Source: Alphaproteobacteria bacterium
Lineage (GTDB): Bacteria; Pseudomonadota; Alphaproteobacteria; SHVV01
NCBI GenBank assembly: GCA_965261735.1
Contig: OZ253470.1
Location: forward strand, 1,216,001 to 1,280,000
Direction: 5' to 3'
DNA length: 64,000 nucleotides
Shown: in pieces, positions 334 to 19,029 of the stretch
How the letters are laid out: each line of letters begins with the position of its first letter
Numbering within the stretch: position 1 is the stretch's first letter
Translations under genes and position numbers: made by a program
The notes under the pieces: generated by a model
Database searches by the model: none
What the model saw: only the letters and a program-made list of their open reading frames with translations
Told to the model about the DNA's origin: nothing

Positions 334-2625
334 ATGACTGACCTGAACCCGCCGCGCAGATCGGTCTCGCTGGACGACTTGCTGAAGGCCAACAAGGCGC
401 AGTTCGACAGTGTCTTCGCGGCCCAGATGAGGGACACGGGCCTGGTGAGCGTGACCCATCGGCCGGCCACGGCAGAGGATCTTGTCTCGGCTAGCCTAGG
501 GGTCCGGGCGGTCGTCGACGGCGACGATAGTACGGCACTCCTCGACGGGCGGTTTGGCGAGGGTTGGTCATCCGAGGTCGTCGAACACAAGACCGAAGGC
601 GGCTCGGTCACGGTGCTGTGCAAGCTCGTGGTGGACGGGGTTTCAAAAATGCAGTTCGGTGCGGCACGGATCAACGGCGATCAGGGTGCCGCTCTGCAAA
701 GGGCGACCGACGAGGCGCTCAAGAAGTGTGCGGCCCTGTTCGGGCCGCGAGAGGGGCTGCCGGAGGCAGAGGCCGGAGGCCCCGCCGCCCGACCGCAAGA
801 GGCGCCGGCCGCGGGAGCCCAGCCCGATGCCGCCGTGCCCAGCCTCGCCGCCCCCACTAGCCGTGCGCTGGACACGATCACCCTGGATCTCATCGAAAAC
901 GCGCTGCGCAACGCCCGGCACGAGATGGACGCCGTACTCTTCCGCTCCGCCATGTCACCCGTGATCCGCGAGCAACACGACGAGTTTCCCATGATCACCG
1001 ACCCCAAGGGGCGGATGATCGTCGGCCAGTTCGGCTCCTACGTCGCCGAGATGCTGCGCGAGCAGAACATGCAGGTTGATCCGGGCGACGTCATTCTCAA
1101 TAACGATCCCTTCAAATGCGGCGGCGCCATCAGCCATATCAACGATTGGCTCGTGCTCGTGCCGATCTTTCACGGCAACGAACTTGTCGGCTTCAGCTCC
1201 ATGTTCGGCCACATGATGGACGTCGGCGGCTGGGTGCCCGGCAGCATGCCGACCGCCGCCACGTCGATCTTCGGCGAGGGAATCCGCATCCCGCCGATCA
1301 AGATCTACGCGAAGGGCGAGATCAACAAGGCGGCGCTCGGCATCATCATGAACAACACGCGCACGCCCGAAATGAACTACAGCGACCTCATGGCTATCAT
1401 CGCCGGCTGCCGTGCCGGCGAGAAGCGGGTGATCCAGATCTGCGACCGCTTCGGTAAGGACACCTACATTCAGGCGTGTGAGGCCCTGCTTGAGCGTACC
1501 AACCGCGCGATGCGGCAGCTCATCGTTCAGAACCTGCCCAATGAGCCTCAGTCGTTCGAAGACTACGTAGATGATGACGGCTGCGGCAACGGCCCCTTCA
1601 AGATGAAACTGACCGTGTGGCGCGAGGGCGACGAGGCCTTCTTCGATTGGACGGGGACCTCAGATCAGGCGCCGGGTCCGATCAATTTCTTCCTCAACGA
1701 GGGCATGTTCAAGATGTTCATCGGGGTCTACATGATCATGGTGTTCGACCCCCAGATTCTCTTCAACGACGGATTCTACGACCTCATTCACGTGACCCTA
1801 CCCAAAGGGTCGCTCGTGCACCCGGAGTTCCCGGCAGCGCTGGGCTGCCGCACGCACGCCCTCGCCCGCCAGTTCGACGTCCTCGGCGGCGCGCTGAGTA
1901 AAAACGCGCCGGAAATGGCCACTGCCGCCGGCTATGGCTCAAGCCCTCACTTCCTGTACTCGGGCGTTGACGGCGATGGCCGCCCGTTCCAGCTCATGGA
2001 GATACTGTTTGGCGGGATTCCCGGCCGCCCGGTAGGCGACGGCATGGATGGCCACTCGTGGTGGCCGCTATTCGAGAATATTCCCACCGAATACCTCGAA
2101 ACCTACTATCCGATGATCATCGAAAACTACACCACGCTAGCCGACACCGGCGGCGCTGGGAGGCACCGCGGCGGCAACGGCGTCGAAAAGGTTTACTTGT
2201 TGTTGGAGAACGGCGAGATCTCCATCCACGATGACCGCCATCTCACCCAGCCGTGGGGGATTCTCGGAGGACAACCGGGCGCTTGCTCGGAAAAATGGCT
2301 GGAGAAAGAGGACGGGTCCAGGGAGCCGTTGCCCTCGAAGGTGGACAACGTAAGAGTGCGCGGGGGCGACAGGATCATCTTCCGCACCGCCGGCGGCGGC
2401 GGCTGGGGCGACCCATTGGAACGCGAGCCGGCAAAGGTGCGCGGCGACGTGGTGCGCGGTCTCTTGACCGTGGGCGCCGCCCAGGAACGGTACGGCGTGG
2501 TCATCGGCAGCGTCGGGCTCACCATTGACGACCGGGCGACCCAGGAGTTGCGCGAGAAGCTGAAAGGGAATCGAGGGACCCTCCCGGTGTTCGATTTTGG
2601 TGCGCAGCCATCGGGTCATGCATGA
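334..2625 (+). CDS. Hydantoinase B/oxoprolinase subunit with N-terminal Rad52/Rad22-like domain
   Basis: Core from aa ~179: LDTITLDLIENAL, MSPVIREQHD, NDPF..GGAISHIND, GHMMDVGG, GRHRGGNG, TAGGGGWGDP; ~178-aa N-terminal extension; GAGG RBS. Confidence 0.9.
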   Translation: MTDLNPPRRSVSLDDLLKANKAQFDSVFAAQMRDTGLVSVTHRPATAEDLVSASLGVRAVVDGDDSTALLDGRFGEGWSSEVVEHKTEGGSVTVLCKLVVDGVSKMQFGAARINGDQGAALQRATDEALKKCAALFGPREGLPEAEAGGPAARPQEAPAAGAQPDAAVPSLAAPTSRALDTITLDLIENALRNARHEMDAVLFRSAMSPVIREQHDEFPMITDPKGRMIVGQFGSYVAEMLREQNMQVDPGDVILNNDPFKCGGAISHINDWLVLVPIFHGNELVGFSSMFGHMMDVGGWVPGSMPTAATSIFGEGIRIPPIKIYAKGEINKAALGIIMNNTRTPEMNYSDLMAIIAGCRAGEKRVIQICDRFGKDTYIQACEALLERTNRAMRQLIVQNLPNEPQSFEDYVDDDGCGNGPFKMKLTVWREGDEAFFDWTGTSDQAPGPINFFLNEGMFKMFIGVYMIMVFDPQILFNDGFYDLIHVTLPKGSLVHPEFPAALGCRTHALARQFDVLGGALSKNAPEMATAAGYGSSPHFLYSGVDGDGRPFQLMEILFGGIPGRPVGDGMDGHSWWPLFENIPTEYLETYYPMIIENYTTLADTGGAGRHRGGNGVEKVYLLLENGEISIHDDRHLTQPWGILGGQPGACSEKWLEKEDGSREPLPSKVDNVRVRGGDRIIFRTAGGGGWGDPLEREPAKVRGDVVRGLLTVGAAQERYGVVIGSVGLTIDDRATQELREKLKGNRGTLPVFDFGAQPSGHA

Positions 2626-2720
2626 GGCCGGCGCAAGGAACCATGCGTTAGACGGATAGGCGGCTACCTATTCCATCCCTGGAGGCAACGCCGACCCATC
2701 GCAACAGCGGGGGCTATACG

Positions 2721-5537
2721 ATGCTCGACATAGCGATCCCAATCCTCATCTTCGCGATCATTGTCATCGCCATCCTGTATGTCGTCTCAATCTGGATTTA
2801 CAAGCGTTCGCCCACCAACATGGCATTCATCCGCACCGGTTTCCTGGGCACCAAGGTATGCCTGGGCCGGGGCGCTCTGGTGTTTCCGGTTTTCCACGAG
2901 GTCACTTGGGTTTCCCTGGAGACGATCAAACTCATCGTAAGCCGCGCCCGTGAGCAGGGCGTTCTCACAGCCGACAAGATCCGCATCGACGTCGGCGCCG
3001 AGCTCTACGCCCATGTCGGCCACACGCCCGAGGCCATTCTCACGGCGAGCCGGAGTTTGGGCGAGAAGACATTCGACGCCGAGAAGGTACGCAACCTGCT
3101 CGAGGCCAAGGTCGTCAGCGCGCTCAGGAGCTACGCGGCGACCAAGACCCTTAGCGAGCTGCACGAAAACCGGGACGCCTTTGCCCGCGAAATCAAAGCT
3201 AGTGTGACGGAGAGCTTTGAGGCCAATGGCCTCACGCTTGAGGAAGTGACGATCGTCACCATGGAGCAAACGCCAAAGGAGTACTTCAAGACCGACAACG
3301 TGTTCGACGCCGAGGGGCTCAAGATCATCACGGAAATCACTTCCGATGCCCGTAGAGAGGTCCACGACACCGAGAAGCGCACGACCGTGTCCATCCGCCA
3401 GAAGGACCTGGACACGCAACTCGAGCTCCTCGAAATCGAACGGCAGGAGGCCGTCGCCCGGGCGGGCCAGGACAAGGCAGTATCCAACGAGCAGGCGCTT
3501 CAGCTCGGCCAAAAGCAGATCTACGTTCTCGACCAGCGCAAAGCCGTCGAGGAAAAGGAGATCGAGAACGAGAAAGCGCTGGAGCGCATGCGGACCGATC
3601 GCGATCTGATCATCACCGAAGAGGCGAAGAAGCGCGAGGCTTCCGAGATCCAAAAAGAGTTGGCACTAGAGCAGGAGCGCAAGGACCGGGAGATTGCGAT
3701 TATCGCCAAGGCGAGGGAAGAAGAGCTGGCCAACATCGCACGCAATCTAGCTCTCGAGCAGGCTGAGAAAGATCGCCAAATCGCCTTGATCGCCAAGGCG
3801 AAGCAGGAGGAATTGGCCGATATCGAGCGAGCGCTGGCACGCGATCGGGCCGCGAAAAACAGCGAAATCGAGCTCATCGCCACGGATCAGGAACGCCAGC
3901 AGACTGAGATTCAGCGTGCCACGGCGGTTATGGCCGAGGAGGAGGCGGCACGCGATCGGCGCCATCAGGCTGGTGAGGAGGCCGCCATATCCATGCGCAG
4001 GCGTAGCCTCCAGACCCGCCTCAGCACGCTTGACCTGGACAAGGACGAGGCGTTCGCCGAAGCCCGCCAGGAGCAAGAGGTGTCCAACGAAAAGGCGCGC
4101 GTACTCAGCGAACAACAGCGCTTCATCCTCGAGCAGCGTTGGCAAGTCGAAGAAGAAGAGATCAACAAGGCGCGGGCGGTCGAGGCCGCCGAAATCCACA
4201 AGGAAGCCGGAATTATCGAAACCATGAAAACACGCGAGGCCGCCGAGGTGCGCCGTGCCCTGGCCCGCGAGCAGGAGGAAAGGGACCGTGAGATCGCGCT
4301 GGTCGCCAAGTCGCAGGAGCTCGAACAGGCGGAAATCCGCCGCAAGTTGGCGGGCGAACAGGAAGATCGCGACCGCCAGCTCGCCCTTGTCGCCAAGGAG
4401 GAAGAGCTGCGACGTGCCGAGGTGAGGCAGGCCCTGGCGGTCGAGCTCGAGGAACGAGCCCGCGAGATCACGCTCATTGGCAAGGAACAGGAGCGCGAAA
4501 TAGCGGATATCGGTCGCTTTCTGGCGCGCGAAAAGGAGGAACGCGACCGCGAGATCGCGTTGGCCGAAAAAACTCGGCAGCTGGAGGAAGCGGAGATCAA
4601 GCGCCTGGAGGCCTCCGCAAAGAGGGAGCGGGCCCAGCACAACGTGGAATCGGTGAGCCTCCTCGCCGACGCCGAGCGCACCAAGAACATCGAACGCGTC
4701 GAAGCCGAAAGGTTGGCTGAAAGCCGTCGGATCGACGAGGAAAATAAGGCCCAGATCAACCGCATGCACATGCTGGCTCAAGCCGAGACGCGGAAGCTGT
4801 CGGCTGAGCAGGAATCCGATGCGACGCTCATCAGAGCTCGCGCTACGAGCGAGGCCCAGAAGATTACCGCCGAGGGGATCGAGAAGGAGGCGGGGGCCAC
4901 AGGCCGGGCCGAAATGGAGATCGAAGCGCTGCGTGCCGCCAACGCCCGGCGCATGCTCGAGGCCGAGGCTTCAGGCCTTGAAGCCAAGGCGGTCGCGCTG
5001 AAGAAGTACAACGAGTCCGGGGCCTTCCTGGAATTGGCAAAGATGCGTATCGAGGCCGAGCGCGACATCCACATCGATCAGGCCAAGGCCATGGGGAGCG
5101 CCCTGCAGGGTGCGCAAATCCGCATGTATGGCGGCGAGAATGGCACCGTCGATACCATTCGCAGCATGTTTACCTCTGGGTTCGCGCTCGGCGAGGTTCT
5201 GGAGGGGGTGGCGCAGTCCTTACCCGAGGGCTTGCGCGGGCGATTCAAGGACAACGGCCTCAGGGGTCTTTTCGGCAAGCCGTACGGGACCAGCGATTTC
5301 AAGCATTCCATCGAGGACTTGAGCAAGCTGGTCCAGAAGAGCTTGCGTACGCGCAAAGACAAGGAGATCCCCTTCGCGGAAGCCGTGACCATTTTGCAGG
5401 AAAAGGCCGGCGGGGATGACGGCCAGGCGAAAGCGGTCGGCCTTCTCAAGGAGATGAACGAACAGGGGCAATTCGACGACCTTTCCTTTGACAAGGTGTG
5501 GGCGCTTATAAGAGCCGCGGCAAAGTCGGCGGACTGA
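2721..5537 (+). CDS. SPFH/flotillin-like (YqiK-type) membrane protein with greatly extended helical stalk
   Basis: N-terminal TM helix, AFIRTGFLG, VFPVFHEV, LTADKIRIDV..ELY, NGLTLEEVTI, NVFDAEGL..IT, long E/R/A-rich helical region, flotillin-type C-terminus. Confidence 0.88.
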   Translation: MLDIAIPILIFAIIVIAILYVVSIWIYKRSPTNMAFIRTGFLGTKVCLGRGALVFPVFHEVTWVSLETIKLIVSRAREQGVLTADKIRIDVGAELYAHVGHTPEAILTASRSLGEKTFDAEKVRNLLEAKVVSALRSYAATKTLSELHENRDAFAREIKASVTESFEANGLTLEEVTIVTMEQTPKEYFKTDNVFDAEGLKIITEITSDARREVHDTEKRTTVSIRQKDLDTQLELLEIERQEAVARAGQDKAVSNEQALQLGQKQIYVLDQRKAVEEKEIENEKALERMRTDRDLIITEEAKKREASEIQKELALEQERKDREIAIIAKAREEELANIARNLALEQAEKDRQIALIAKAKQEELADIERALARDRAAKNSEIELIATDQERQQTEIQRATAVMAEEEAARDRRHQAGEEAAISMRRRSLQTRLSTLDLDKDEAFAEARQEQEVSNEKARVLSEQQRFILEQRWQVEEEEINKARAVEAAEIHKEAGIIETMKTREAAEVRRALAREQEERDREIALVAKSQELEQAEIRRKLAGEQEDRDRQLALVAKEEELRRAEVRQALAVELEERAREITLIGKEQEREIADIGRFLAREKEERDREIALAEKTRQLEEAEIKRLEASAKRERAQHNVESVSLLADAERTKNIERVEAERLAESRRIDEENKAQINRMHMLAQAETRKLSAEQESDATLIRARATSEAQKITAEGIEKEAGATGRAEMEIEALRAANARRMLEAEASGLEAKAVALKKYNESGAFLELAKMRIEAERDIHIDQAKAMGSALQGAQIRMYGGENGTVDTIRSMFTSGFALGEVLEGVAQSLPEGLRGRFKDNGLRGLFGKPYGTSDFKHSIEDLSKLVQKSLRTRKDKEIPFAEAVTILQEKAGGDDGQAKAVGLLKEMNEQGQFDDLSFDKVWALIRAAAKSAD
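3345..4631 (+). repeat. Intragenic ~200-aa tandem duplication containing 29-aa repeats in the flotillin stalk
   Basis: DARREVH..QDKAVSNEQA.. (3345) aligns with AARDRRH..QEQEVSNEKA.. (3945), offset 600 nt; repeats LALEQERKDREIAIIAKAREEELANIARN / LAREQEERDREIALVAKSQELEQAEIRRK. Confidence 0.8.
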
Positions 5538-5557
5538 GCCGGCGCTCGGGACAGGGC

Positions 5558-6640
5558 ATGACGCAGCACGACGTCGTTCTGAAAGGCGTGGACAAGACCT
5601 TCGTGGGCGACGTTCGTGCCGTGATCGACTTCAATGCCGAGATCGAGCACGGCGAGTTCGTAGCCATGCTCGGGCCGAGCGGCTGCGGCAAGACCACCAT
5701 GCTGCGCCTGATCGGCGGGCTCGAAGAGGTGACCGCGGGACGCATCTACATCTCCGAGCAAGACGTGACGGACCTGCCGCCGTCGCAGCGCGACACCGCG
5801 ATGATGTTTCAGAGCTTCGCGCTCTTCCCGCACCGCACGGTGCTGCAGAATGTTGAGTTCAGTCTCAAGACCAAGGGGCTGCCGAAAGACGAGCGCGCGC
5901 GCCACGTGTGGGAGATGCTCGAATTGGTGAGCCTCGCCGAGCTCGCCAACCGCTATCCCCGTGATCTGAGCGGAGGGCAACAGCAGCGCGTCGCCCTGGG
6001 CAGGGCTTTGATCGCCAGACCGACCGTACTTCTACTCGATGAGCCGCTCGGCTCTCTCGACTACAGCCTGCGCCAAGCCATGATGGTCGAGCTCAAGAAG
6101 ATTCAGCGCGAGCTGGGAATCACCTTCATCATGGTCACCCACTCCCAGCAGGAAGCGTTGTCCATGGCGGACAAGGTGATCGTAATGAGCGATGCCGTGA
6201 TTCAGCAGATCGGCACGTCGCGGGAAATCTACGAGCACCCGCGAACCAAGTTCGTGGCCGAATTCGTCGGCAACAACAACTTGTTCCAGGGGACCGTCCG
6301 ATCGCGCAGCGGTTCCATCGTGTTCGTGGAAACCAATGGCCACTTGTTCTACGTGAGAATCCCCGAGCACATGCGCCAGGTGCCGATCGGCAAGGAAGCG
6401 TACTTCTCGGTGCGAGCCGACCGCATGCACACGGGCGAACAACCGGCCATGGCCAATCGGATCGAAGGCGAGTACGTCACCACCGAATTCATGGGCTCGC
6501 TGGAGACCGACGTTTTCGAGATCGCGCCCAGGATTTTCGTCCACGTCGAGCAGCACCGTAGCGCGTCGGATCGCGACTACAACATGGGGGACCGCGAAAC
6601 CATCTGCTGGGCGGCCGATGCGGGGGTGCTGCTCGACTAG
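5558..6640 (+). CDS. ABC transporter ATP-binding protein, PotA-like
   Basis: GPSGCGKTT, LSGGQQQRVALGRAL, LLLDEP, VTHSQQEA, C-terminal TOBE-like region; ATG at 5558. Confidence 0.92.
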   Translation: MTQHDVVLKGVDKTFVGDVRAVIDFNAEIEHGEFVAMLGPSGCGKTTMLRLIGGLEEVTAGRIYISEQDVTDLPPSQRDTAMMFQSFALFPHRTVLQNVEFSLKTKGLPKDERARHVWEMLELVSLAELANRYPRDLSGGQQQRVALGRALIARPTVLLLDEPLGSLDYSLRQAMMVELKKIQRELGITFIMVTHSQQEALSMADKVIVMSDAVIQQIGTSREIYEHPRTKFVAEFVGNNNLFQGTVRSRSGSIVFVETNGHLFYVRIPEHMRQVPIGKEAYFSVRADRMHTGEQPAMANRIEGEYVTTEFMGSLETDVFEIAPRIFVHVEQHRSASDRDYNMGDRETICWAADAGVLLD

Positions 6641-6652
6641 GAACCTCGATCG

Positions 6653-7480
6653 CTATCGCGAGCGGCGATAGAGGATGGTGTAGATCGCGACGAACAGAGC
6701 GATCATGGACAACGAAAAAAGCGTCGAGGCGGTGCCGAGCGCAAACAGCGTCGGCCGGATGCGCTGGGCCGTGGCGGCGTTGATGTCGAGCGGCAGTGTG
6801 TTGTACTGGCCCGAGAGCAGAGTCGTGCGCGCGAACTCGTCGTAGGAAAGCGTAAAGCCAAAGAGAGCAGCCGCCACGATGCCAGGCATAATCAGCGGCA
6901 GCGTCACCTCCCTGAACACGGTCCATTCGCTGGCGCCCATGTCGCGGGCCGCCTCCTCGACACTCTCATCGAAGCGGTTGAAAACCGCCATCATGACCAG
7001 GAACCCGAACGGCAGCGTCCACACCACGTGGACGCCCAAACCCGAGGACCACCACGCCGGTGCAATCGCCACCTGCTTCAGCAGGGTCGCGAGCCCGAGA
7101 CTGAGCAGGATCCCCGGCACCATGAGGCCCGCCAAGATCGTGTAGAACAAGAGGCCCGAGCCTGGGAACGGTTTGCGAAATGCCATCGCCAACATGGTGG
7201 AGAACAGGGCGGTGACGACCATCACGATCAGCGCCAGAATCAACGAGCGCAGCAACGCCCCCTGCATGTCGCCGACCACCGAGGGCTCAATCAGCTTGTT
7301 CCACCAGTACAGGCTGACGCCGCGCATGGGAAAGCTCACGCCCCCTCGGCGCCCCTGGAACGAAAGGATGAACATGGCGATCATCGGCCCATAGATGAAG
7401 AGGAGGAACAGGATGTAGTAGGCGCTGAAACCGGTCTTGATCCAGGCCTTCTTTCTCCTTTCCGGGGTCGAGCGAGCCAC
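6653..7480 (-). CDS. ABC transporter permease, PotC-like
   Basis: Multiple TM helices; EEAARDMGAS EAA motif; FTLSYDEF. Confidence 0.9.
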   Translation of the reverse strand: MARSTPERRKKAWIKTGFSAYYILFLLFIYGPMIAMFILSFQGRRGGVSFPMRGVSLYWWNKLIEPSVVGDMQGALLRSLILALIVMVVTALFSTMLAMAFRKPFPGSGLLFYTILAGLMVPGILLSLGLATLLKQVAIAPAWWSSGLGVHVVWTLPFGFLVMMAVFNRFDESVEEAARDMGASEWTVFREVTLPLIMPGIVAAALFGFTLSYDEFARTTLLSGQYNTLPLDINAATAQRIRPTLFALGTASTLFSLSMIALFVAIYTILYRRSR

Positions 7481-7481
7481 C

Positions 7482-8471
7482 TCAAAGCTCCTTGCGAATG
7501 TCGACCAGCCTCAGGATGATGACCACGCCGATCATCATGGCGAGCATCAGCATGAGGGCGTTTACCGCGGCGAAGGGATAGTTCGCTATACCGTAATAGT
7601 TCAGGATCACCGTCCCCGCTGTGCTGGTTTTTCCGCCGTACACCACAACCGCGGTCGCGAACTCCCCCATGATCAGCACGAAGATGAAGATCATTCCGAT
7701 GGCCACCCCCGGGAGTGAGAGCGGGCCGATGATCTCGCGGAAAATCTGGAACGGTTTGGCGCCCATATCGCGCGCCGCCTCGAGGATCGTCTTTTCGATT
7801 TTCGCCAGCGAGAAAAAGATGGGTCCGACGCACAGCACAACGTAGAGCTGCACCAACGCCATCGTGTAACTGAACTGCGAATACAGCAGGAACTCGACGG
7901 GCTTGTCGATGATGCCCATGTCGAGCAAGGCCCTGTTGAGCAGGCCGCGCCGCCCCAGCATGGGCAGCCAGGCCACGGCGCGGATCAGGTAGCTGGTCCA
8001 GAACGGCACCATGCAAAACAGAAACAGCGTGATCTGCCACTTGAAGCTCTTCACCTGCATGGCGAGGAAATAGGCGATCGGGTATCCAAACAGCAGACAG
8101 AAGAGCATCACGACAATGGTGAATTTGAAAGTCGTCCAGAGAGTCCGGACAAAGATGCCTGGGGTCAGAAACCCAACGGAGGAGGGATCGAGGAATCCCT
8201 CGACGGTGAAGTAGTCCGCGTAGTGGCGGAGGGTCAGATCGGGCTCCATGCCGTGGCCCGTGGACTTCCAAAAGCTGAAAACAACGATGCTGGCCAAGGG
8301 CACAACCAGGAACAGCAGCAGCCAGACGACGGCGGGCGTAATCAGCCAGCCCACGGGGAACCCAGCCTGTCGCCAGGTTTTCGCGGCCCGGGCCTCTGTT
8401 TCCGGCGCCGTCGGCTGGCTGCCGATCAGCCCTGAGTGGTGCGCATGCTCGGCTTGCTGCATACCAGTCAA
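7482..8471 (-). CDS. ABC transporter permease, PotB-like
   Basis: GYPIAY, PFWTSYLIR, LEAARDMGA, PLSLPG. Confidence 0.9.
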   Translation of the reverse strand: MTGMQQAEHAHHSGLIGSQPTAPETEARAAKTWRQAGFPVGWLITPAVVWLLLFLVVPLASIVVFSFWKSTGHGMEPDLTLRHYADYFTVEGFLDPSSVGFLTPGIFVRTLWTTFKFTIVVMLFCLLFGYPIAYFLAMQVKSFKWQITLFLFCMVPFWTSYLIRAVAWLPMLGRRGLLNRALLDMGIIDKPVEFLLYSQFSYTMALVQLYVVLCVGPIFFSLAKIEKTILEAARDMGAKPFQIFREIIGPLSLPGVAIGMIFIFVLIMGEFATAVVVYGGKTSTAGTVILNYYGIANYPFAAVNALMLMLAMMIGVVIILRLVDIRKEL

Positions 8472-8494
8472 GATTCAAAAGGCACGGAAGGACT

Positions 8495-8529
8495 AGGACC
8501 GGGCAAACCGGTGGGATTTGCCCGGTCCT
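8495..8529 (-). promoter_or_regulatory. Intergenic stem-loop downstream of the binding-protein gene (mRNA stabiliser or attenuator)
   Basis: Perfect 13-bp stem AGGACCGGGCAAA / TTTGCCCGGTCCT with a 9-nt loop. Confidence 0.55.
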
Positions 8530-8640
8530 TGGGGAGACGGCAGATCCCTGGGGACGCCACCGGTTCTCTAGGCGGGCGCGGCCGAAGCCGCCCGCACCCG
8601 CCACGACTACCGGGCCATCGGTCCGGCAACAAACATCGGA

Positions 8641-9945
8641 TCAGGCCGCCAGAAACTCCGTCCAGCGCTTTACCAGATAATCGTTCTCGTCCATCAACGA
8701 GTTCCACACGGCGATATTGCTGAAGCGGTCCTGGTAGGAGCCGCCATCGCGGATTTCTCCCTTGGGCACAATGACGGTCCCGAACGGATCGGACAGTTCT
8801 TTGGCGGCGGGTTTCCCGTCGTACCAGTAATCCCACTCCTCGGGTTCCAAGTTCTTCCTCACTGGATCCAGCACCGACATGTAGTACGCCTGACGGGCCA
8901 CAAAGGCGCCCGGCCAGCCGCTCAGCCACCAGTTGATGTATTCGTATGCCGCGTCGAGCTTCGCACCCGTGGCCTTGGCGGAAATGGCCAAGCCGCCATG
9001 CCAGCCGCGCATGCCTTCTTTCGGCGAGGCGTAGATGCATTTTACGCCCTCCGCCTTGATGGCCGTCACCGCCGGAGACCACATGCTTTCAAGAGCCACC
9101 TCGCCGCTCACCATCAGGTTGACCGATTGGCCGAAGCTCTCCCAGAATGCCCGGAAGTGACCCTCCTTTTTCTTCTTGATCAGGAAATCGGCCATGAAAT
9201 CGATCTCCTCCTTGGTCATGTTGCCCTTGTCGCCAAATGTGCGCAGGCCCAGCGCCTCGATCCCCATGGCCGCGTCCATGACACCGATCTGGGGTACGTT
9301 CAAGAGCGCTACGCGACCCTTGAAATCCGGGCTGAACAACTCGGCCCAGGATTCGATTTTCCGCCCGGTCTCATCGGGGTTGTAGCCAATCGAATCCGCG
9401 TTGTGCCAGGCCGGGACCATGGATACGTAACGCGACGGTCCCTGCACCCGATTACCGTCCTCGTCGAGCCAAAGGTGGCGGAACGGGGCGTCGCCCTGCC
9501 CGAGGTTCGAGCTGGGGGTCAGCTTACCGGTCTTTGACAGGTTGGTGACGTTGTCCCACTCCTTGATCCGCCGTGTGTCAATGGGCTGCCACACCTTGGC
9601 TGGAATCATAAAGTCCATATCGTTGTAGTAGCCCTCGGCCACATCATACTGGTCGTTCTGGTTCAGCAATTTGGCCACAAAGGGGCCGTAAACCAGCGCC
9701 TGGCCGCGAACGGCGAAGCCAAGATCCTTCGAGGCTTGGCTCTGGATCTCATTGATGATGCTGACGGCGAGGCCAACGGTGCGTACCGTTTCAGCCCCTT
9801 GGGCGATATGCGGGAAACCGCTGACGAGCGCCCCTGCCGCAACCGCGGTGGCAGTGGTGCCGATAAACTCGCGACGACTTACGCCCTTTTTGGGGGCGCG
9901 CTTCTTTCGATGAGTCTGGCCTGATTTCGCTTTATGCTCGGCCAT
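8641..9945 (-). CDS. PotD/PotF-family substrate-binding protein with Tat signal
   Basis: SRREFIG twin-arginine motif, AQG-A cleavage site, NADSIGYNP, SWAELF, PKEGMRGW; RBS GGAGGAG upstream of ATG 9945. Confidence 0.88.
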   Translation of the reverse strand: MAEHKAKSGQTHRKKRAPKKGVSRREFIGTTATAVAAGALVSGFPHIAQGAETVRTVGLAVSIINEIQSQASKDLGFAVRGQALVYGPFVAKLLNQNDQYDVAEGYYNDMDFMIPAKVWQPIDTRRIKEWDNVTNLSKTGKLTPSSNLGQGDAPFRHLWLDEDGNRVQGPSRYVSMVPAWHNADSIGYNPDETGRKIESWAELFSPDFKGRVALLNVPQIGVMDAAMGIEALGLRTFGDKGNMTKEEIDFMADFLIKKKKEGHFRAFWESFGQSVNLMVSGEVALESMWSPAVTAIKAEGVKCIYASPKEGMRGWHGGLAISAKATGAKLDAAYEYINWWLSGWPGAFVARQAYYMSVLDPVRKNLEPEEWDYWYDGKPAAKELSDPFGTVIVPKGEIRDGGSYQDRFSNIAVWNSLMDENDYLVKRWTEFLAA

Positions 9946-10160
9946 CGATTCTCTCCTCCCGTTGACAACGTGGGTTCCTGTAGAGACGCCCGTTGAAGCT
10001 TGAATAAATCCTAGGGAAGCCGCCTCCAAGAGTCCATCCAAACATCATCGCCGGCGCCAGCAGCGCAGCCGTCAAAGCCTTTGCCTCGCCGCGATAGCCG
10101 CGCGCATACTGGCCGCCGGTCGAGCGCTAGATCGAGGCCGAGACTGCCCGGGAGGATGTC

Positions 10161-11627
10161 GTGACCGTATTGATCAAGAACGGCCGTATTGTGACCGCCG
10201 TCGATGACTACCACGCCGATATTTTTGTCAACGGCTCCACGGTTACCGTGATCGGGAAGAACCTGAACATCGAAGCGGATCGGGTGATCGACGCCTCGGG
10301 GAAGCTCGTCATTCCCGGCGGGGTCGACCCGCACACCCATCTCGACCTACCGTTCGGCGGAACCACGACCTCCGACGACTTCGAGACCGGGACGCGCGCC
10401 GCGGCCTTTGGCGGAACCACGTGCCTCGTGGATTTCGCCGTGCAGTTGAAGGGTACCTCGACGCTGGAGGCGCTCGAGAAATGGCACGAGAAGGCCGCCG
10501 GCAAGACCGCCATCGATTATGGCTTTCACATGATCATCACCGACATGCCGACCCATCGTACGCCAGAAATGAGGCGTCTCGCGGACGAGGGAATCACTAG
10601 CTACAAGCTGTTCATGGCCTATCCCGGTGCCATGCTGTCCGACGACGGCACCATCTTCCGCACGATGCGCAAGGCCGGTGAGGACGGAACCCTCGTGTGC
10701 ATGCACGCCGAGAATGGAATCGTCATCGACGAGCTCGTCAAGATCGCTCTCGCCGAAGGCCACATCGAACCCAAATATCACGCCTTGACCCGGCCGACCC
10801 GTCTCGAGGCCGAGGGAACGCACCGGGCGCTCGCCATCGCCGAGGTCGCGCGCTCGCCCGTCTACATCGTGCACATGAGTTGCCACGATTCGCTCCATGA
10901 GCTTCGCCAAGCCCAGGCCCGCGGGGTCATGGCCCACGGCGAGACCTGCCCGCAATACCTCCTGCTCGACGTCGGCGCCTATGACGAGCCGGGATTCGAC
11001 GGTGCCAAGTACGTGCTGACCCCGCCGCTGCGAGAAAAGTGGAACCAGGACGAACTATGGCGGGGTCTGCGCGGCAACGCCCTCAACGTCATTTCGACCG
11101 ACCATTGTCCGTTCTGCCTACGCGAGCAGAAGGAGCTCGGGCGCGACGATTTCAGCAAGATCCCGAATGGCGGCCCGGGCATCGAAAACCGGATGAGCCT
11201 CATCTATCACCATGGCGTCGGAGCCGGCCGCATCGGCCTCAATCGCTTCGTCGAGCTCACCTCGACCGCCCCGGCCAAGATCTTCGGCCTCTTCCCGAAG
11301 AAGGGAACACTGGCCGTCGGCAGCGACGCCGATATCGTGATCTTCGATCCCGACCGCGAGGAGACGATCAGCTATTACAATGCGGCCACCCACCACATGA
11401 ACATCGATTACAGCGCCTACGAGGGCTTTAAGGTCAAGGGCTACACGGAGACCGTGCTGAGCCGCGGCAAGGTCATCATCGACAAAGGCGAGTATTTGGG
11501 TCGACCGGGAGACGGCATGTTCGTCAAGCGAGGGCCCTACGGCGGCATGTACGCCGCCGCACCGGGTATGGGTGCGCCGCCGGCCGACTCGCGGTGGGAC
11601 ACCAGCGGGCCATCGCGCGCCGCCTGA
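10161..11627 (+). CDS. hydA: Dihydropyrimidinase / D-hydantoinase
   Basis: PGGVDPHTH, SYKLFMAY (carbamylated Lys), MHAENG, IVHMS, STDHCPF, GSDADIVIFDP. Confidence 0.93.
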   Translation: MTVLIKNGRIVTAVDDYHADIFVNGSTVTVIGKNLNIEADRVIDASGKLVIPGGVDPHTHLDLPFGGTTTSDDFETGTRAAAFGGTTCLVDFAVQLKGTSTLEALEKWHEKAAGKTAIDYGFHMIITDMPTHRTPEMRRLADEGITSYKLFMAYPGAMLSDDGTIFRTMRKAGEDGTLVCMHAENGIVIDELVKIALAEGHIEPKYHALTRPTRLEAEGTHRALAIAEVARSPVYIVHMSCHDSLHELRQAQARGVMAHGETCPQYLLLDVGAYDEPGFDGAKYVLTPPLREKWNQDELWRGLRGNALNVISTDHCPFCLREQKELGRDDFSKIPNGGPGIENRMSLIYHHGVGAGRIGLNRFVELTSTAPAKIFGLFPKKGTLAVGSDADIVIFDPDREETISYYNAATHHMNIDYSAYEGFKVKGYTETVLSRGKVIIDKGEYLGRPGDGMFVKRGPYGGMYAAAPGMGAPPADSRWDTSGPSRAA

Positions 11628-13432: not shown

Positions 13433-15673
13433 CTAGCGAGACCGCAATCGCTGGGTCTCCTCCGAATTCAGGGTGTCAGCGACCGGATCGATGGCGACTC
13501 CGTAAACATCTCGGGCGATCTCTATTGTTATGTAGTCGTCCAGATAATCGCCCAGCACCATCGCCGGATCACGCGCTTTAGGATCGCCGTAGCCACCGCC
13601 GGAGGGCGCCGTGATTTGGATCAGATCGCCAGCTTCCATCTTATATCCGGTGACCTTGGAGGGCCAGTTCTGCTCTTCTGCCGTGCCCGGGTTCTTAACG
13701 AGCTTGCCCGTGTGGCCTTCCGTCCCACCGAAGACGCCGTGCGGCTTTTCCAGGTGGCGGTCCGCCTCACACGAGATGTAACCCGGTGCGAGGAACCGGT
13801 TCTCGCGCACGATGCCGATGCCGCCGCGCCACTGGCCGGCGGCCGGAGGATCGGGCCGCAACTCGTAGCGCTCGTTGCGGATCGGATAGTGCATGTCGAG
13901 CTCTTCGACCGGATTGTTGCGCGTGTTGGCCATAAGGTTGTCGACGCTGTCCATGCCGTCCTTGCCGTGTCGGCCGCCGTAACTCCCCTCGTCGACCTCC
14001 AGATAAACCCAGTATTGCTGTTTCTCGGGAATGAACCCGCTGTAGGAGATGAAATAGAGCGACGCGGAATTGCCCCCGGTCGCCCTTTCCGGGATGACCG
14101 GCGACAGCGCGTGAATGACGCAGTCCAGCACCCTCTGAATCTGGGCGAAGCGTGAAAAGCAGGCGCGCGGAAAGTTTGGATTGAAGATCGTGCCCTTGGG
14201 GGCAATGACGTTGACCGGGCGGAAGATGCCCTCGTTTTGCGGGATGAACTCCTCGAAGGTCACTTCGTCCAGCATTAGGGTACGAACGATGTAGTTGCAA
14301 GCGACCACGAGACTGCCCTCGAAGGGCACGTTGAAGCCGGTCTCCACCTCGGCCGCCGACCCGGTGAGGTCGATGGTGATGTCGCTGCCCTTGACACGCA
14401 CGGTGACGTTGACCTTCAGCGGCGTATCGCGGTTTTTCCCGTCGTCATCCAGCCAGCCCTCGGAGTGGTACTCACCGTCGGGAACCTTTTCGATCTCGGC
14501 GCGCAGCATTCTTTCCGAGTAGTCCATCCAATAGTTTGCCGTGCCCATGACGGTGTCCGCGCCGTATTTCCCGACGAGCCGCAGAAAACGCTCGCGTCCG
14601 ATTTCCACCGCCGCGATCATCGCCTCGATATCCGAGGTATCCATGTCGGGGGTGCGCACGTTGTCCTTGAGGAGTTGCCAGACCTCCTCGTTACGGGTTC
14701 CGCGGTCGTACAACTTGATGGCGTTGAAGAGCTTGGACTCGGCGTAGACGTCGACCACGTCGACATTGATGCCGGGGGCGGCGCCGCCCATGTCGAGCAG
14801 GTGCGCGGTGCAGGCGGAGAACCCCAATAGCCCGCCGTCATGAACGATGGGCACGATCACGGCCACGTCGGGCGTATGCGAGGCGCCGTAATAGGGGTGG
14901 TTGTGGATGATGACGTCGCCCTCGTGGATGTTGCCGGCCAACCGTTTCAGGATGCCTCTGATGTACCAGGGAAGAGAACCGATGTGCATCGGCGTGCTCT
15001 CGCTCTCGCAGAGCTCATTCCCTTCCATGTCGAAAATGCCGCAACCCAGGTCCTCCGACTCGCGAATGATGCTCGAGTAGGACATTCGGTAAAGGACGTG
15101 GGCCATCTCCTTGGCGATGGCGTTGAAGGCGCCGCCCACCACGCGAAGCGTGACTGGGTCGAGGTCCTGATATGAAAAGTCGGTAATCTTCGATGGCGCC
15201 GGACGGCCAGTCAGCGCCACCGCGGTCGAAACTGGCTCGGAGTCGGCCTGTCGCAACGCTGGCAGCTGGGGCGCGGGCGCCGGCCGCAGAGCCTCCGCCG
15301 CCGGTTCCGTTGCCTCGGGCGGGGAGGCTACCGGAGCGTCCGTTGTGGCCGGTAGCCCCGGTCGCGGCCGGACCGTGTCCGGCGGCGCGGCGCCCCGCCC
15401 GGTATCGACGAGCGTCATTGCGCACTGGAGGAGGCTGTCGTCGGAGGCGACCTCGAGCTGCTCGCCCAGCGACAGACCACCGCGCCCGTTGGCCGTTCCC
15501 GATTTTCGCACCTGGGCGCCGTCCGCCCGCAGCTCGCCTTCCACTTCCACGCCGTCGCCACGCAGGTGGTGGTTGATAATGTCGAAACTCCAACCGTCGC
15601 CGTAGGCGTCGCGGAGTGCCTTGACGACGGCGGGGACGGTTGTTGGTCCCGTCGTACTTGGCGCGTCATTCAT
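13433..15673 (-). CDS. hyuB: Hydantoinase B / N-methylhydantoinase B subunit with N-terminal Rad52/Rad22-like domain
   Basis: Core from aa ~171: LDPVTLRVV, YSSIIRESED, NHPYYGASHTPD, AHLLDMGG, GQWRGGIG, PSGGGYGDP; ~170-aa N-terminal extension. Confidence 0.9.
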   Translation of the reverse strand: MNDAPSTTGPTTVPAVVKALRDAYGDGWSFDIINHHLRGDGVEVEGELRADGAQVRKSGTANGRGGLSLGEQLEVASDDSLLQCAMTLVDTGRGAAPPDTVRPRPGLPATTDAPVASPPEATEPAAEALRPAPAPQLPALRQADSEPVSTAVALTGRPAPSKITDFSYQDLDPVTLRVVGGAFNAIAKEMAHVLYRMSYSSIIRESEDLGCGIFDMEGNELCESESTPMHIGSLPWYIRGILKRLAGNIHEGDVIIHNHPYYGASHTPDVAVIVPIVHDGGLLGFSACTAHLLDMGGAAPGINVDVVDVYAESKLFNAIKLYDRGTRNEEVWQLLKDNVRTPDMDTSDIEAMIAAVEIGRERFLRLVGKYGADTVMGTANYWMDYSERMLRAEIEKVPDGEYHSEGWLDDDGKNRDTPLKVNVTVRVKGSDITIDLTGSAAEVETGFNVPFEGSLVVACNYIVRTLMLDEVTFEEFIPQNEGIFRPVNVIAPKGTIFNPNFPRACFSRFAQIQRVLDCVIHALSPVIPERATGGNSASLYFISYSGFIPEKQQYWVYLEVDEGSYGGRHGKDGMDSVDNLMANTRNNPVEELDMHYPIRNERYELRPDPPAAGQWRGGIGIVRENRFLAPGYISCEADRHLEKPHGVFGGTEGHTGKLVKNPGTAEEQNWPSKVTGYKMEAGDLIQITAPSGGGYGDPKARDPAMVLGDYLDDYITIEIARDVYGVAIDPVADTLNSEETQRLRSR

Positions 15674-15685
15674 CGCCGGGCCCCG

Positions 15686-17818: not shown

Positions 17819-18505
17819 TCAAGCACCGGTTTCCACCTTGGCCTGACCGAGGTAGTCGAGCACCCGCTCGAGGGGCTCCACGTCGCCGAACTTCGCGTCA
17901 ATGTCGAAGAGGTTCCAGTCGACGACGCCGGCCACCCGGTCGCCCACCGCCTCGCGGACGACAATCGGCCGGAACCCCTCGGCGATCGCATCTTCGGTCG
18001 TGTGGCGGACGCACGCGCTGACGGTCGTACCGGTGATGATGACCGTATCCACCCCGGCCGCCCTCAGGAAGCCGGCGAGATAGGTGCCGTGAAAGGCGCT
18101 GGCCCGCTTCTTGACGATAACATGCTCGCCGGCCTGCGGCGCGATGCGCTCGTCGATGGCAACGCCCTCGGTGCCGAGCTTCAAGACGGCCAGCGGAATC
18201 TTGAGATGCCACAGGCCCATGTCGGTATTCGGCCCTTCGGTGACGGCATAGGCGGTGGTCGTGTAGACGATGGGAATGCGCTTGGCGCGCGCCGCCGCCA
18301 GCAGCTTCTGGACGCTCGGAATGATCACGTCCATGCCGTCGCAACTGAACGCGTTGCCGGGGCGCGTCCAGGCGTTCGCGAGATCGATATTGATGAGCGC
18401 GGGCCATTCGCCAAAGCCAATTCGGCGCTGGAATCCCCGCTTCTTGTAGAGGTCGGAATCGGCGGAGAAGACCCGGCTCAGGGCCTTGCTAAGCTCTTCG
18501 TCCAT
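17819..18505 (-). CDS. N-carbamoylsarcosine amidohydrolase (isochorismatase family)
   Basis: RGFQRRIGFG, IDLANAWTRPG, DMGLW, KKRASAF, ACVRHT.EDAI, GDRVAGVVDWNLFDIDAKFGDVE closely resemble the Arthrobacter CSHase as recalled; Asp-Lys-Cys triad present. Confidence 0.85.
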   Translation of the reverse strand: MDEELSKALSRVFSADSDLYKKRGFQRRIGFGEWPALINIDLANAWTRPGNAFSCDGMDVIIPSVQKLLAAARAKRIPIVYTTTAYAVTEGPNTDMGLWHLKIPLAVLKLGTEGVAIDERIAPQAGEHVIVKKRASAFHGTYLAGFLRAAGVDTVIITGTTVSACVRHTTEDAIAEGFRPIVVREAVGDRVAGVVDWNLFDIDAKFGDVEPLERVLDYLGQAKVETGA

Positions 18506-18615
18506 AGTGAAACGAAGCTACCACCGACCAATCGGGGTGTCGATTTGGATTTGCGAGCCGTGGTACGGGGAGTTGTCGGGGCGGCCCGGTGGCCGCAACC
18601 GCGTTCGGCCTTGCC

Positions 18616-19029
18616 CTATTCCGGCGGGGTGACCCCCGTCTGTTCGGTGATGATCTTGTAGTGCTCGATCCGCCGATGGACGGCGAAATTGAACATGGCG
18701 TCCTGTGCGCGCACGCAGAGGTCCAGATCGCAGCGGGCGGCGATCAGCTCGTCCCCTTTGGTGGCGGCCTGAGCGACGATCTCGCCCGACGGCGCGGCGA
18801 TGATGGAGCCACCGATCAGGTCGCAGCCCTTCCTCGATGCCCGCCTTGGCCACGCCCACCACCCAGGCACCGTTCTGATAGGTGCCCGCCTGCATGCACA
18901 GATGATTGTGGAAGGCCGTGAGGTCGCTATAGATCGGCTCCCACGGCATGTTCGCTGGCGTGTTGTAGCCGAGAAGCACGACTTCCGCCCCCTTGAGCGC
19001 CAGCACCCGATATGTCTCCGGCCAGCGCC
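18616..19029 (-). pseudogene. N-carbamoyl-D-amino acid amidohydrolase (nitrilase family), 3' fragment with frameshift
   Basis: RRWPETYRVLALKGAEVVLLGYNTP..QAGTYQNG..VAKAGIEEG, then shifted frame CDLIGGSIIAAPSGEI..FNFAVHRRIEHY; 5' half replaced by IS sequence. Confidence 0.82.

Follow-up and report, generated by a model that had tools for sequence, protein, structure and literature searches.

In the flotillin-1/2 cage (PDB 9bq2), the wall is a side-by-side barrel of helices of 186 residues that have charged faces and no heptads (Fu and MacKinnon 2024, PMC11260169). The passages of that paper on cage architecture give lengths of 44 to 189 residues for the wall helices of SPFH proteins, which are thought to set the size of the cage, and present as an open point how this length sets cage size and subunit number. 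Here, we describe a long flotillin-like gene found in a window of 64,000 nucleotides (the whole stretch of DNA that was analysed) from an alphaproteobacterium. Set against the description of the wall in PMC11260169, its product also has an SPFH domain followed by long helical segments with charged faces and no heptads, and then by a presumed C-terminal cap region. It differs from flotillin-1/2 in having ~520 helical residues in three helices instead of a 186-residue wall, a transmembrane helix instead of lipidation, and in its 29-residue tandem repeats, segmental duplication and extra C-terminal bundle.

Other systems resemble the protein in more restricted ways. In the major vault protein (Foldseek 9z4w_3, E 4.4e-4), an SPFH-like shoulder is followed by a long cap helix that packs laterally against its neighbours in a cage, but the protein studied here has neither MVP repeat domains nor a membrane-free double-shell, and the resemblance is one of principle only. 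SF-assemblin and beta-giardin share the 29-residue repeat, its 8 turns and the long alpha-helical rod (PMC2119799). Their a/d positions are hydrophobic, whereas the equivalent ones are here mostly Glu, Arg or Lys, and there is no sequence relation to our protein, which combines a membrane anchor with an SPFH domain. Regarding gene context, a conserved cluster of SAR11, HIMB59 and Pseudothioglobus also pairs a bacterial flotillin gene (1,977 bp) with a dedicated membrane partner on one transcript, next to metabolic genes (PMC10308929). There, the flotillin has an ordinary length, its partner is a rhodopsin, and the sections of the paper on the cluster describe no HyuAB or ABC ATPase. Searches of the full-text literature found nothing pairing YqiK with hydantoinase, or flotillin with hendecad; in the SPFH/flotillin literature that was found, the word "hydantoinase" is absent and "oxoprolinase" occurs only in the rhodopsin-cluster paper.

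Domain layout and YqiK-type relatives

The initial annotation had classed the gene as a flotillin, and its product is indeed an SPFH protein: it scores 60.3 bits with Pfam Band_7 (cut-off 23.6), and no other Pfam family matches it at E <= 0.01. The search of the AF2 model with Foldseek retrieved the Band 7 domain of flotillin 2 (1win, E 2.9e-7) and stomatin (4fvf, E 2e-6), in a region that is modelled with low confidence, and also HflK/C, prohibitin and erlin chains and one chain of the flotillin complex (9bq2_B, E 3.9e-5). The similarity to eukaryotic flotillin by sequence alone is weak. We found no match with phmmer against the PDB sequences, a profile of 68 sequences attained flotillin 2 with a non-significant E of 0.44, and the NCBIfam FloT equivalog NF058507 gave 18.2 bits for a cut-off of 700. 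A scan of the genome found no other flotillin-type gene (Band_7 65.4 bits for this one), and the long flotillin is therefore probably a homo-oligomer.

The features of the locus are given in Table 1. By the positive-inside rule, the part of the protein that follows the membrane helix would be on the cytoplasmic side. AF2 modelled the full-length protein poorly (mean pLDDT 64, pTM 0.25), with low confidence in the SPFH part as well; it places the ~520 helical residues in three long helices (aa 252-432, 445-636 and 648-794).

Table 1. Coordinates of the features in the window and the evidence for them.
Feature	Positions	Strand	Evidence or remark
hyuB-type gene (Hydantoinase_B/oxoprolinase family), ~180-aa N-terminal extension	334..2625	+	directly upstream
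Long-form SPFH / YqiK-type flotillin-like gene	2721..5537	+	938 aa
N-terminal membrane helix, aa 2-29, then K28 R29	2724..2807	+	AF2 helix 2-29; hydrophobic sequence
SPFH / Band 7 domain, aa 45-190	2853..3290	+	Pfam PF01145; Foldseek
Stalk unit 1, aa 210-409: non-repeat part A (210-313) and array 1	3348..3947	+	
Array 1: three 29-residue repeats, from aa 314, 343, 372	3660..3920	+	HMM 42.9-43.9 bits each; 87-nt spacing
Stalk unit 2, aa 410-609: copy A' (410-513) and first three repeats of array 2	3948..4547	+	600-nt offset
Array 2: four 29-residue repeats, from aa 514, 543, 572, 601	4260..4607	+	HMM 39.4-50.2 bits; 87-nt spacing
Third long helix, aa 648-794, common to short YqiK-type relatives	4662..5102	+	AF2 helix
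Gly-rich C-terminal region, aa 795-850, conserved family-wide	5103..5270	+	many invariant columns
Clade-specific C-terminal helical bundle (predicted), aa 858-938	5292..5534	+	AF2 pLDDT 82-94
ABC transporter ATPase (ABC_tran + TOBE_2)	5558..6640	+	Pfam; directly downstream

Homologues of the protein are named "uncharacterized membrane protein YqiK" in some sources (JGI), and we place it among the YqiK-type bacterial flotillin-like proteins (COG2268). We compared it with 112 YqiK-type relatives of 500-715 aa, which align at aa 1 to ~330 and ~560-840 with 30-39% identity and E-values down to 5e-72. The first of these blocks takes in the transmembrane helix, the SPFH domain and the beginning of the helical stalk with part A, and the second takes in a later portion of the stalk and the conserved C-terminal region. 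Stalk length, which the initial annotation had singled out for comparison with YqiK-family members, is not typical of them: the stalk is ~230-260 residues longer than those of the 112 relatives, of which only 3-13 cover aa 391-510. The short stalks are also built differently, since most are 11-residue periodic: 66 of the 112 match themselves best at a period of 11 residues, 16 at 22 or 33, seven at 18 and only two at 29, and one relative has 44-residue repeats. The hydrophobic Fourier periods of these stalks were scattered (median 3.51, IQR 3.41-3.70) and were left unused.

The C-terminal part of the protein comprises two regions with different distributions. The Gly-rich region (majority-residue share 0.84) is covered by 49 of the 112 short relatives and is presumed, by analogy with flotillin, to be the roof or cap region. 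The extra C-terminal helical domain of ~80 aa that had been announced from the sequence is recovered by AF2 as a bundle at aa 858-936 (pLDDT >80). None of the 112 short relatives covers aa 871-938 and 362 proteins carry the bundle, which by these alignments is specific to the long-flotillin clade. Searches for relatives of the bundle gave nothing in the PDB with Foldseek (E <= 0.001), nothing in Pfam (E <= 1) and no match in a word-indexed search of proteins of 30-514 aa; the best hit of the VIA wide search (Z 5.2) is within the noise for helical bundles, and the best score in the ESM Atlas (0.76) is a lead only.

Internal duplication and 29-residue repeats

The stalk was enlarged by an old segmental duplication of ~200 residues that included part A and an array of 29-residue repeats. 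The duplication had been proposed in the initial annotation from an offset of 600 nt, and the comparison of aa 210-407 with aa 410-607 aligns the two units without gaps, with 82 of 198 residues identical. The best ungapped diagonals of the protein against itself have offsets of 29 (score 433, aa 265-637) and 200 (score 378). As a control for chance, we scored the best ungapped self-diagonal in 200 residue shuffles of aa 200-800. At offsets of 100-300, these had a mean of 59 (sd 8.6) and a maximum of 87, far from the observed 378, and at offsets of 5 to 99 the maximum was 133. Repeat copies are also visible in the DNA at 3642, 4242, 4329, 4416 and 4503, i.e., with spacings of 600, 87, 87 and 87 nt. 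They are 62-73% identical, which is too diverged for Tandem Repeats Finder, and the latter reported nothing on 2000..6500.

The three repeats from 3660 and the four from 4260 that had been read from the sequence were both found at precisely these places, and their proposed consensus, LA.EQE.RDREIAL.AK..E.E.AEI.R, agrees with a profile that we made of 400 distinct repeats from 121 proteins of the family. Two further degenerate 29-mers can be recognised by eye ahead of each array (aa 256 and 285, aa 456 and 485).

The periodicity of the stalk is more complex than initially described. The proposed value of 3.625 residues per turn is 29/8, because eight is the sole whole number of turns that is compatible with an alpha-helix. 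It holds for the stalk as a whole, whose hydrophobic period peaks at 3.635 (a peak reached by none of 200 shuffles), but not for the arrays taken separately, where the strongest harmonics are 29/13 and 29/10 instead of 29/8. These two lead because the conserved hydrophobic residues occupy two opposite faces of the helix, which also has an Ala stripe. The claim that the stalk is not a heptad coiled coil was borne out, with a coherence of the hydrophobic stripe of 0.09 at a pitch of 3.5 residues versus 0.61 at 3.625. Charged residues make up 37-47% of the stalk and Ala 15-21%.

Gain and loss of whole repeats across the family

The family has ~200 homologues of 789-1023 aa. Both stalk units are kept in all the full-length members examined, and a full-length clade member with one stalk unit was found nowhere among 202 proteins. 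Three candidates for this state (P0124, P0127 and P0129) were rejected because their C-termini are aberrant, which makes them look like products of frameshifts or of truncated records.

The initial annotation had suggested looking for variation in repeat number across homologues; such variation exists and is quantised in whole 29-residue repeats. The distance between landmarks is a whole number of 29-mers in 182 of the 197 full-length proteins, while 15 do not fit whole repeats. Leaving aside two rows whose negative counts are artefacts, the fitting proteins have 3 to 10 repeats over both arrays; forms of 851, 938 and 1023 aa, for instance, carry 4, 7 and 10. Among full-length members, the large self-offset is 200, 171 or 142, tracking the number of repeats in array 1. 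The segments around the arrays are of constant length: the spacer between arrays is fixed at 113 aa across the family, and the end of array 2 lies 170 aa from the IRMYG motif in 180 of 193 proteins, with array-2 counts that range from 1 to 7.

The tree of the 182 proteins (FastTree) requires at least 36 changes of repeat number, and gain and loss of whole 29-residue repeats is ongoing in both arrays. In the forms of 994 and 1023 aa, the extra repeats hardly differ from one another and were therefore amplified recently. We saw no variant with an 87-nt indel in the contigs of two DNA runs (X4 and X8), although contigs drop rare variants. Unequal recombination also yields changes of whole repeats, and quantisation alone is thus no proof of a structural constraint.

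Gene neighbourhood and candidate architecture of the stalk

The product of the upstream hyuB-type gene matches Hydantoinase_B at aa 180-694 (E 1e-149) and has 240 bits with the NCBIfam model of caprolactamase beta, under its 1000-bit cut-off. Downstream, the ABC ATPase likely starts at the ATG located 21 nt past the flotillin stop (M21 of the translation). We analysed the synteny of 46 loci of Alpha- and Gammaproteobacteria, which belong to a single clade (at least 54% identity) and include three Ectothiorhodospiraceae or other gammaproteobacterial records. The flotillin gene is immediately preceded by a HyuB homologue in 45 of them and immediately followed by an ABC ATPase homologue in 43; the other flanking genes vary, and those encoding the permease and the binding protein are kept in only 10-11 loci. 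The gaps between the three genes are short, no terminator-like site was found on the plus strand within 2500..6800, and both gene junctions are spanned by contigs that come from a single study with two metatranscriptome libraries, although these contigs could derive from contaminating DNA. The window contains a second hyuA-hyuB pair (13433..17764, minus strand), which lacks a flotillin gene.

The fixed order hyuA-hyuB-flotillin-ABC ATPase suggests that the scaffold is tied to, and may serve, the uptake and hydrolysis pathway of HyuAB and the ABC transporter. Alternatively, the order may have been inherited, and the flotillin may be a general scaffold of membrane microdomains that has no specific link with HyuAB or the ABC importer, as bacterial flotillins are usually seen. 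This is quite possible, though we find it the less convincing account. The absence of a flotillin next to the second hyuA-hyuB pair and the origin of all 46 loci in one clade fit with it, but the conservation of hyuB and of the ABC ATPase across Alpha- and Gammaproteobacteria, when the other flanks vary, does not, and neither do the short gaps free of terminator-like sites. The long form is also patchy (4 of 60 relatives), as expected of an accessory module travelling with its cluster. Furthermore, a client-specific flotillin operon has a precedent in the rhodopsin-flotillin genes of SAR11, as these are presented in the account of that cluster (PMC10308929).

We think it probable that this membrane-anchored SPFH protein of the YqiK/flotillin type, with its duplicated modular stalk, forms a closed cage with collinear helices and is linked to this pathway. 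As in the SPFH assemblies solved so far, flotillin included, a large number of subunits would close into a cage attached to the membrane on its cytoplasmic side. Homology and the absence of a heptad core point to a wall of laterally packed helices, which would be a single layer of parallel and highly charged ones. The three long helices would run on in one direction, the Gly-rich region would close the roof, and the extra C-terminal bundle would be at or under it. The 29 residues would make eight helical turns (11+11+7), so that one repeat more or less would change the helix by ~4.35 nm, and the conserved residues of the putative seam (L1, I12, I/V15 and I26 on one face, L14 on the opposite one) would keep their azimuth when repeats are added or removed. 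A constant azimuth of the seam would account both for the tolerance of whole repeats only and for the fixed length of the other segments. The size counts against this model, since a collinear stalk of ~520 helical residues would span ~78 nm, an unprecedented length that is almost three times that of the longest SPFH wall known. The prediction of a complex of four copies of aa 440-640 (scores 0.02 and 0.00 for a mark of 0.42) speaks neither for nor against binding.

The size problem would vanish if the stalk were folded back in an up-down-up zigzag with turns at aa 433-444 and 637-647, giving a thicker or stiffer wall and a cage of ordinary height. The AF2 model interrupts the stalk at exactly these two places, which could be turns, and an odd number of helices would still put the cap region at the end away from the membrane anchor. 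The model has low confidence, however, and the two interruptions contain no Gly or Pro. Moreover, the arms of a hairpin should co-vary in length, but array 2 spans from 1 to 7 repeats (a difference of up to ~26 nm) with helices 1 and 3 fixed and not compensating for it, which argues for collinear helices rather than length-matched ones. The wall helices of solved SPFH cages also run one way, in the structures covered by the comparison in PMC11260169. We thus regard folding back as quite unlikely. It also seems unlikely, if a little less so, that there is no cage wall and that the 29-mers make a segmented coiled coil with two or three strands, like those of SF-assemblin and beta-giardin, or else a spacer consisting of one charged alpha-helix, in a long rod or filament holding the C-terminal domain far from the membrane. 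For SF-assemblin, the 29-residue repeat has been interpreted as four heptads and one skip residue (PMC2119799), and the high charge of our stalk (37-47%) might suit a single helix, with opposite-charge pairs at i/i+3 and i/i+4 above those of shuffles (z of 1.3, 2.4 and 2.9 in the three helices). Yet in the best register of four heptads plus skip just 3 of the 8 a/d positions are hydrophobic in at least 50% of cases (mean 0.42), and we rejected membership of the SF-assemblin type of segmented coiled coil on this basis. The share of large hydrophobic residues (~21-22%) is high for a single alpha-helix domain, the position of the conserved hydrophobic residues on two opposite faces, together with the Ala stripe, fits contacts with two neighbours, and every solved SPFH protein retrieved by Foldseek forms rings or cages.

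The cage model with collinear helices can be carried further, in a more speculative form to which we give little credence: the 3 to 10 modules would set the height digitally, and each nanocompartment would enclose the cytoplasmic face of the ABC importer together with the ATP-dependent HyuAB, docked by the C-terminal bundle or by the Rad52-like N-domain of HyuB. If true, this would be a bacterial flotillin whose cargo is defined and contains enzymes, with a wall ~3 times as long as that of any solved SPFH cage. The natural variants of this clade, with their 3 to 10 modules of 29 residues and otherwise constant segment lengths, constitute a ready-made ruler series for cryo-EM. Finally, the function of bacterial flotillins is poorly defined, and the hyuA-hyuB-flotillin-ABC ATPase operon, present across many genomes, provides a concrete and testable client.

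Protein layout and repeat units

The long-form flotillin, a 938-aa SPFH/YqiK-type protein, has an N-terminal hydrophobic helix (aa 2-29) with Lys-Arg right after it and a sole Pfam domain, Band_7/SPFH (aa 45-190, 60.3 bits, cut-off 23.6). The AlphaFold2 model of the full protein, with 68 homologues as input, is poor overall (pLDDT 64, pTM 0.25), but the secondary structure is nonetheless clear: three very long helices (aa 252-432, 445-636 and 648-794), then a conserved Gly-rich stretch (aa 795-850) and a small, confidently predicted helical bundle (aa 858-936). The extra ~80-aa C-terminal helical domain proposed in the initial annotation is thus borne out. With this model, Foldseek retrieved Band 7 of flotillin-2 (E 2.9e-7), the 9bq2 flotillin complex (E 3.9e-5), stomatin SPFH domains, HflK/C, prohibitin, erlin and major vault protein.

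The stalk contains two ~200-aa units (aa 210-409 and 410-609), each with a non-repeat part followed by an array of 29-residue repeats. The gene contains one DNA repeat family, with copies spaced by 600, 87, 87 and 87 nt; Tandem Repeats Finder reported no repeats in the flotillin gene region because these copies are only 62-73% identical. In the protein, the top two ungapped self-diagonals lie at offsets of 29 (score 433) and 200 (score 378), the maximum over 200 composition-preserving shuffles of aa 200-800 being 133 at offsets 5-99 and 87 at offsets 100-300. The offset-200 diagonal places aa 210-407 onto 410-607, with 82 of 198 residues identical. Clear 29-mers begin at aa 314, 343 and 372 (array 1, from nt 3660) and at aa 514, 543, 572 and 601 (array 2, from nt 4260), and two degenerate 29-mers precede each array. 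The duplicated, repeat-built stalk read from the sequence, with units 600 nt apart and three then four repeats, is therefore confirmed in every element.

The C-terminal region predicted alone (aa 795-938, 33 sequences) reached a pLDDT of 76 (87-94 for most of aa 865-934) and a pTM of 0.67. The bundle had no Foldseek match at E <= 0.001, nothing above Z 5.2 by VIA-align, no Pfam match and, in a word-indexed search, no stand-alone relatives of 30-514 aa. No other part of the protein is as poorly conserved as the bundle (majority-residue share of 0.57 vs 0.74-0.85 elsewhere). A putative role as cap or docking site is possible.

Repeat number across the family

An exhaustive HMMER search gave 1873 matches among 1.84 billion cluster representatives. 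The long form is a single 50% cluster, and the relatives next in line, of 500-715 aa, share 30-39% identity with it. The parts of the window protein that these short relatives (112 YqiK-type proteins) match are aa 1 to about 330 and about 560-840; aa 391-510 are covered by only 3-13 of them and aa 871-938 by none. The long clade therefore has ~230-260 extra stalk residues and its own C-terminal domain, i.e., its stalk length is not the one typical of YqiK-type proteins. The strongest self-offset in the short relatives is 11 residues in 66 of the 112, 22 or 33 in 16, 18 in 7 and 29 in 2. Thus, the family stalk is hendecad-based, with the 29-mer (11+11+7) as the long clade's variant. In another alphaproteobacterium (genome G045, L051:3816-5885, + strand), a 690-aa SPFH protein has clear tandem 44-residue (4 x 11) stalk repeats, with self-offsets of 44, 33, 88 and 11. 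The SPFH/YqiK family seems to have evolved modular stalks repeatedly, with different unit lengths.

A word-indexed search found at least 1027 relatives among 8000 candidates scored, the best 120 falling into length classes of 851, about 910, about 938, 965, 994 and 1023 aa; the C-terminal 144 residues as query retrieved 362 proteins. We located the length differences with an HMM built from the seven repeats of the window protein. The architectures (repeats in array 1 + array 2) were 2+2 (851 aa), 3+3, 3+4 (the window protein), 3+5, 3+6 and 3+7, and 46 species-level genomic loci encode 2+2, 3+3, 2+4 (909 aa), 3+4 and 1+2. Among 202 family proteins, every full-length one keeps two units, and the large self-offset drops from 200 by 29 for each absent array-1 repeat (to 171 or 142), except in two short subgroups (124 or 149). 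Array 1 begins at aa 313-315 in most proteins, the inter-array spacer is constant (113 aa), and array 2 ends 170 aa before the C-terminal landmark motif IRMYG in 180 of 193 proteins, across array-2 counts of 1 to 7.

Landmark distances, used in place of HMM counts, fit whole numbers of 29-mers in 182 of 197 proteins, two of these rows having artefactual negative counts. Repeat number, which the initial annotation had proposed to compare across homologues, ranges from 3 to 10 (3 repeats in 3 proteins, 4 in 23, 5 in 2, 6 in 30, 7 in 54, 8 in 8, 9 in 51 and 10 in 9). The 15 exceptions have other indels: they comprise odd lengths of 861-873 and 906 aa and an 832-aa subgroup (P0308-P0310, P0313, P0323) that is ~46% identical to the window protein and has the two-unit plan with its units offset by 124 residues. 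A tree of the 182 proteins implies 36 or more changes in repeat count (11 in array 1 and 33 in array 2), an order of magnitude only, since it is a quick FastTree with close relatives and both artefact rows among its tips. Extra repeats are near-identical to one another in the 994- and 1023-aa forms and are therefore recent tandem amplifications. Array 2 of P0036 (994 aa) and P0039 (1023 aa) has 3-4 successive 29-mers identical or 1-3 residues apart, in contrast to the diverged repeats of the window protein, which points to very recent amplification in this subgroup. The duplicated repeat stalk is a trait of a conserved clade, and stalk length is digital.

Gene neighbourhood and genome context

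Features of the window around the long-form flotillin gene
Feature	Position	Strand	Remarks
Hydantoinase_B-family gene (hyuB type)	334..2625	+	upstream of flotillin gene
HyuB N-terminal extension	334..873	+	roughly 180 aa
Long-form flotillin ORF	2721..5537	+	938 aa; contains the whole finding
ABC ATPase with TOBE_2 domain	ATG at 5558	+	downstream; 21 nt past flotillin stop if that ATG is used
ABC permease genes	6653..7480, 7482..8471	-	convergent to ATPase gene
Solute-binding protein gene	8641..10041	-	convergent to ATPase gene
Amidohydrolase gene	10161..11627		next after binding-protein gene
Second hyuA-hyuB pair	13433..17764	-	HyuB 746 aa, HyuA 692 aa
Extension of second HyuB	15158..15673	-	related to that of the first
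Isochorismatase-family gene	17819..18505		near second hyuA-hyuB pair
IS1595-type zinc-ribbon transposase ORF	18518..19453		near second hyuA-hyuB pair

A HyuB homologue ends just 5' of the flotillin gene in 45 of the 46 loci and the ATPase lies directly 3' in 43, the exceptions being truncated contigs or broken assemblies. Alphaproteobacterial MAGs (Rhodospirillaceae, Xanthobacteraceae and Rhodobiaceae among them) contribute most of the loci, and three are Ectothiorhodospiraceae or other gammaproteobacterial records; one locus (L007) has a full HyuA ahead of HyuB. Other neighbours vary, permease and binding-protein genes being kept in only 10-11 of the 46. In the window, these genes match the ATPase of the flotillin operon and lie on the opposite strand, ATPase, permease and binding-protein genes together spanning 5558..10041.

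No plus-strand terminator-like site was found across the hyuB-flotillin-ATPase genes, and two metatranscriptome libraries of one study contain exactly matching contigs that span 2516-2839 and 5082-5585. These bridging contigs hint weakly at co-transcription of the three genes. A precedent for a partner-linked flotillin gene is the SAR11 rhodopsin-flotillin cluster, in which the flotillin and its dedicated partner are co-transcribed (PMC10308929).

Near-identical DNA of window 2400..5800 (at least half of sampled words) occurs in 18 public runs, and any part of it in 20 runs from 10 studies; public sequencing data have therefore captured this organism, or one very closely related, repeatedly. 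Besides the long-form gene, the 5.03 Mb one-contig genome encodes three SPFH proteins, one stomatin-like and two forming an HflK/C-like pair; the long-form gene is therefore its only one of flotillin type. The distribution of the long form is patchy: it occurs in 4 of 60 sampled relatives (G001, G004, G008, G056), including 2 of 7 within the same family.

Analysed alone, the N-terminal extension of the HyuB adjoining flotillin just exceeds the cut-off of Pfam Rad52_Rad22 (20.4 vs 20.3 bits, E 5e-4), and the extension of the second HyuB is 34% identical to it over 117 aa (E 1e-11). Rad52-like domains typically form rings, and such a domain would be unexpected on a hydantoinase subunit. There is no flotillin gene beside the second hyuA-hyuB pair.

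Helix geometry and stalk shape

Across 400 distinct repeats, the profile is L1 A2 x E4 x E/A6 E7 R8 D9 R10 E11 I12 A13 L14 I/V15 A16 K17, two variable positions, then E20 x E22 x A24 E25 I26 x R28 x. An alpha-helical pitch is possible with eight whole turns only (29/8 = 3.625). At this pitch, a stripe at 310 to 12 degrees unites L1, I12, I/V15 and I26; on the opposite side, at 186-211 degrees, lie L14 and positions 3 and 21, which are partly hydrophobic; and A2, A13, A24 and E/A6 make an alanine stripe (99-137 degrees). The proposed non-heptad periodicity of 3.625 residues per turn is close to that of the whole stalk, whose hydrophobic period peaks at 3.635 residues (power reached by 0 of 200 shuffles). 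Within the arrays it does not show as the leading harmonic: 29/13 (alias of a 1.81-residue period) and 29/10 are the strongest, because the hydrophobic residues are two-sided on the helix. The 29-mer lacks a heptad core: stripe coherence of the repeat is 0.61 at the 3.625 pitch and 0.09 at heptad pitch, and when it is read as four heptads with a skip residue, only 3 of 8 a/d positions are hydrophobic even in the best register.

The stalk helices are 37-47% charged. The solved flotillin wall is described (PMC11260169) as having 44 helices side by side, 186 residues each, without heptads and held by charged residues on both helix faces, and SPFH wall helices of 44-189 residues are a proposed determinant of cage size. 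The sequence features of the window protein's stalk would suit a wall of this type, with every helix touching two neighbours, better than a classical coiled coil.

An alpha-helix rises 1.5 Å per residue. If collinear, the ~520 helical residues of the stalk would extend ~78 nm, each repeat adding 4.35 nm. This would far exceed every solved SPFH cage, which leaves some weight on two other shapes. A rod or filament in place of such a cage is unlikely. That the helices fold back antiparallel is quite improbable: the AlphaFold2 helix breaks (aa 433-444 and 637-647) could be turns, or else kinks, but array 2 differs between proteins by as many as six repeats (about 26 nm of helix) while no other segment changes length to compensate, and length-matched antiparallel arms are therefore hard to reconcile with the family. 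These comparative segment lengths favour a collinear stalk.

Full-text searches found nothing in print on YqiK together with hydantoinase or flotillin together with hendecad, no account of the long-form clade for SPFH/flotillin combined with hydantoinase/oxoprolinase, and no YqiK structure, by title or abstract, among the matches listed for YqiK, flotillin and structure. The clade is thus unreported in the literature searched, as a variation on the known flotillin type. We infer its assembly, its height and a link to HyuAB, and all tests run are consistent with a flotillin-type wall whose module is a non-heptad helix of eight turns.
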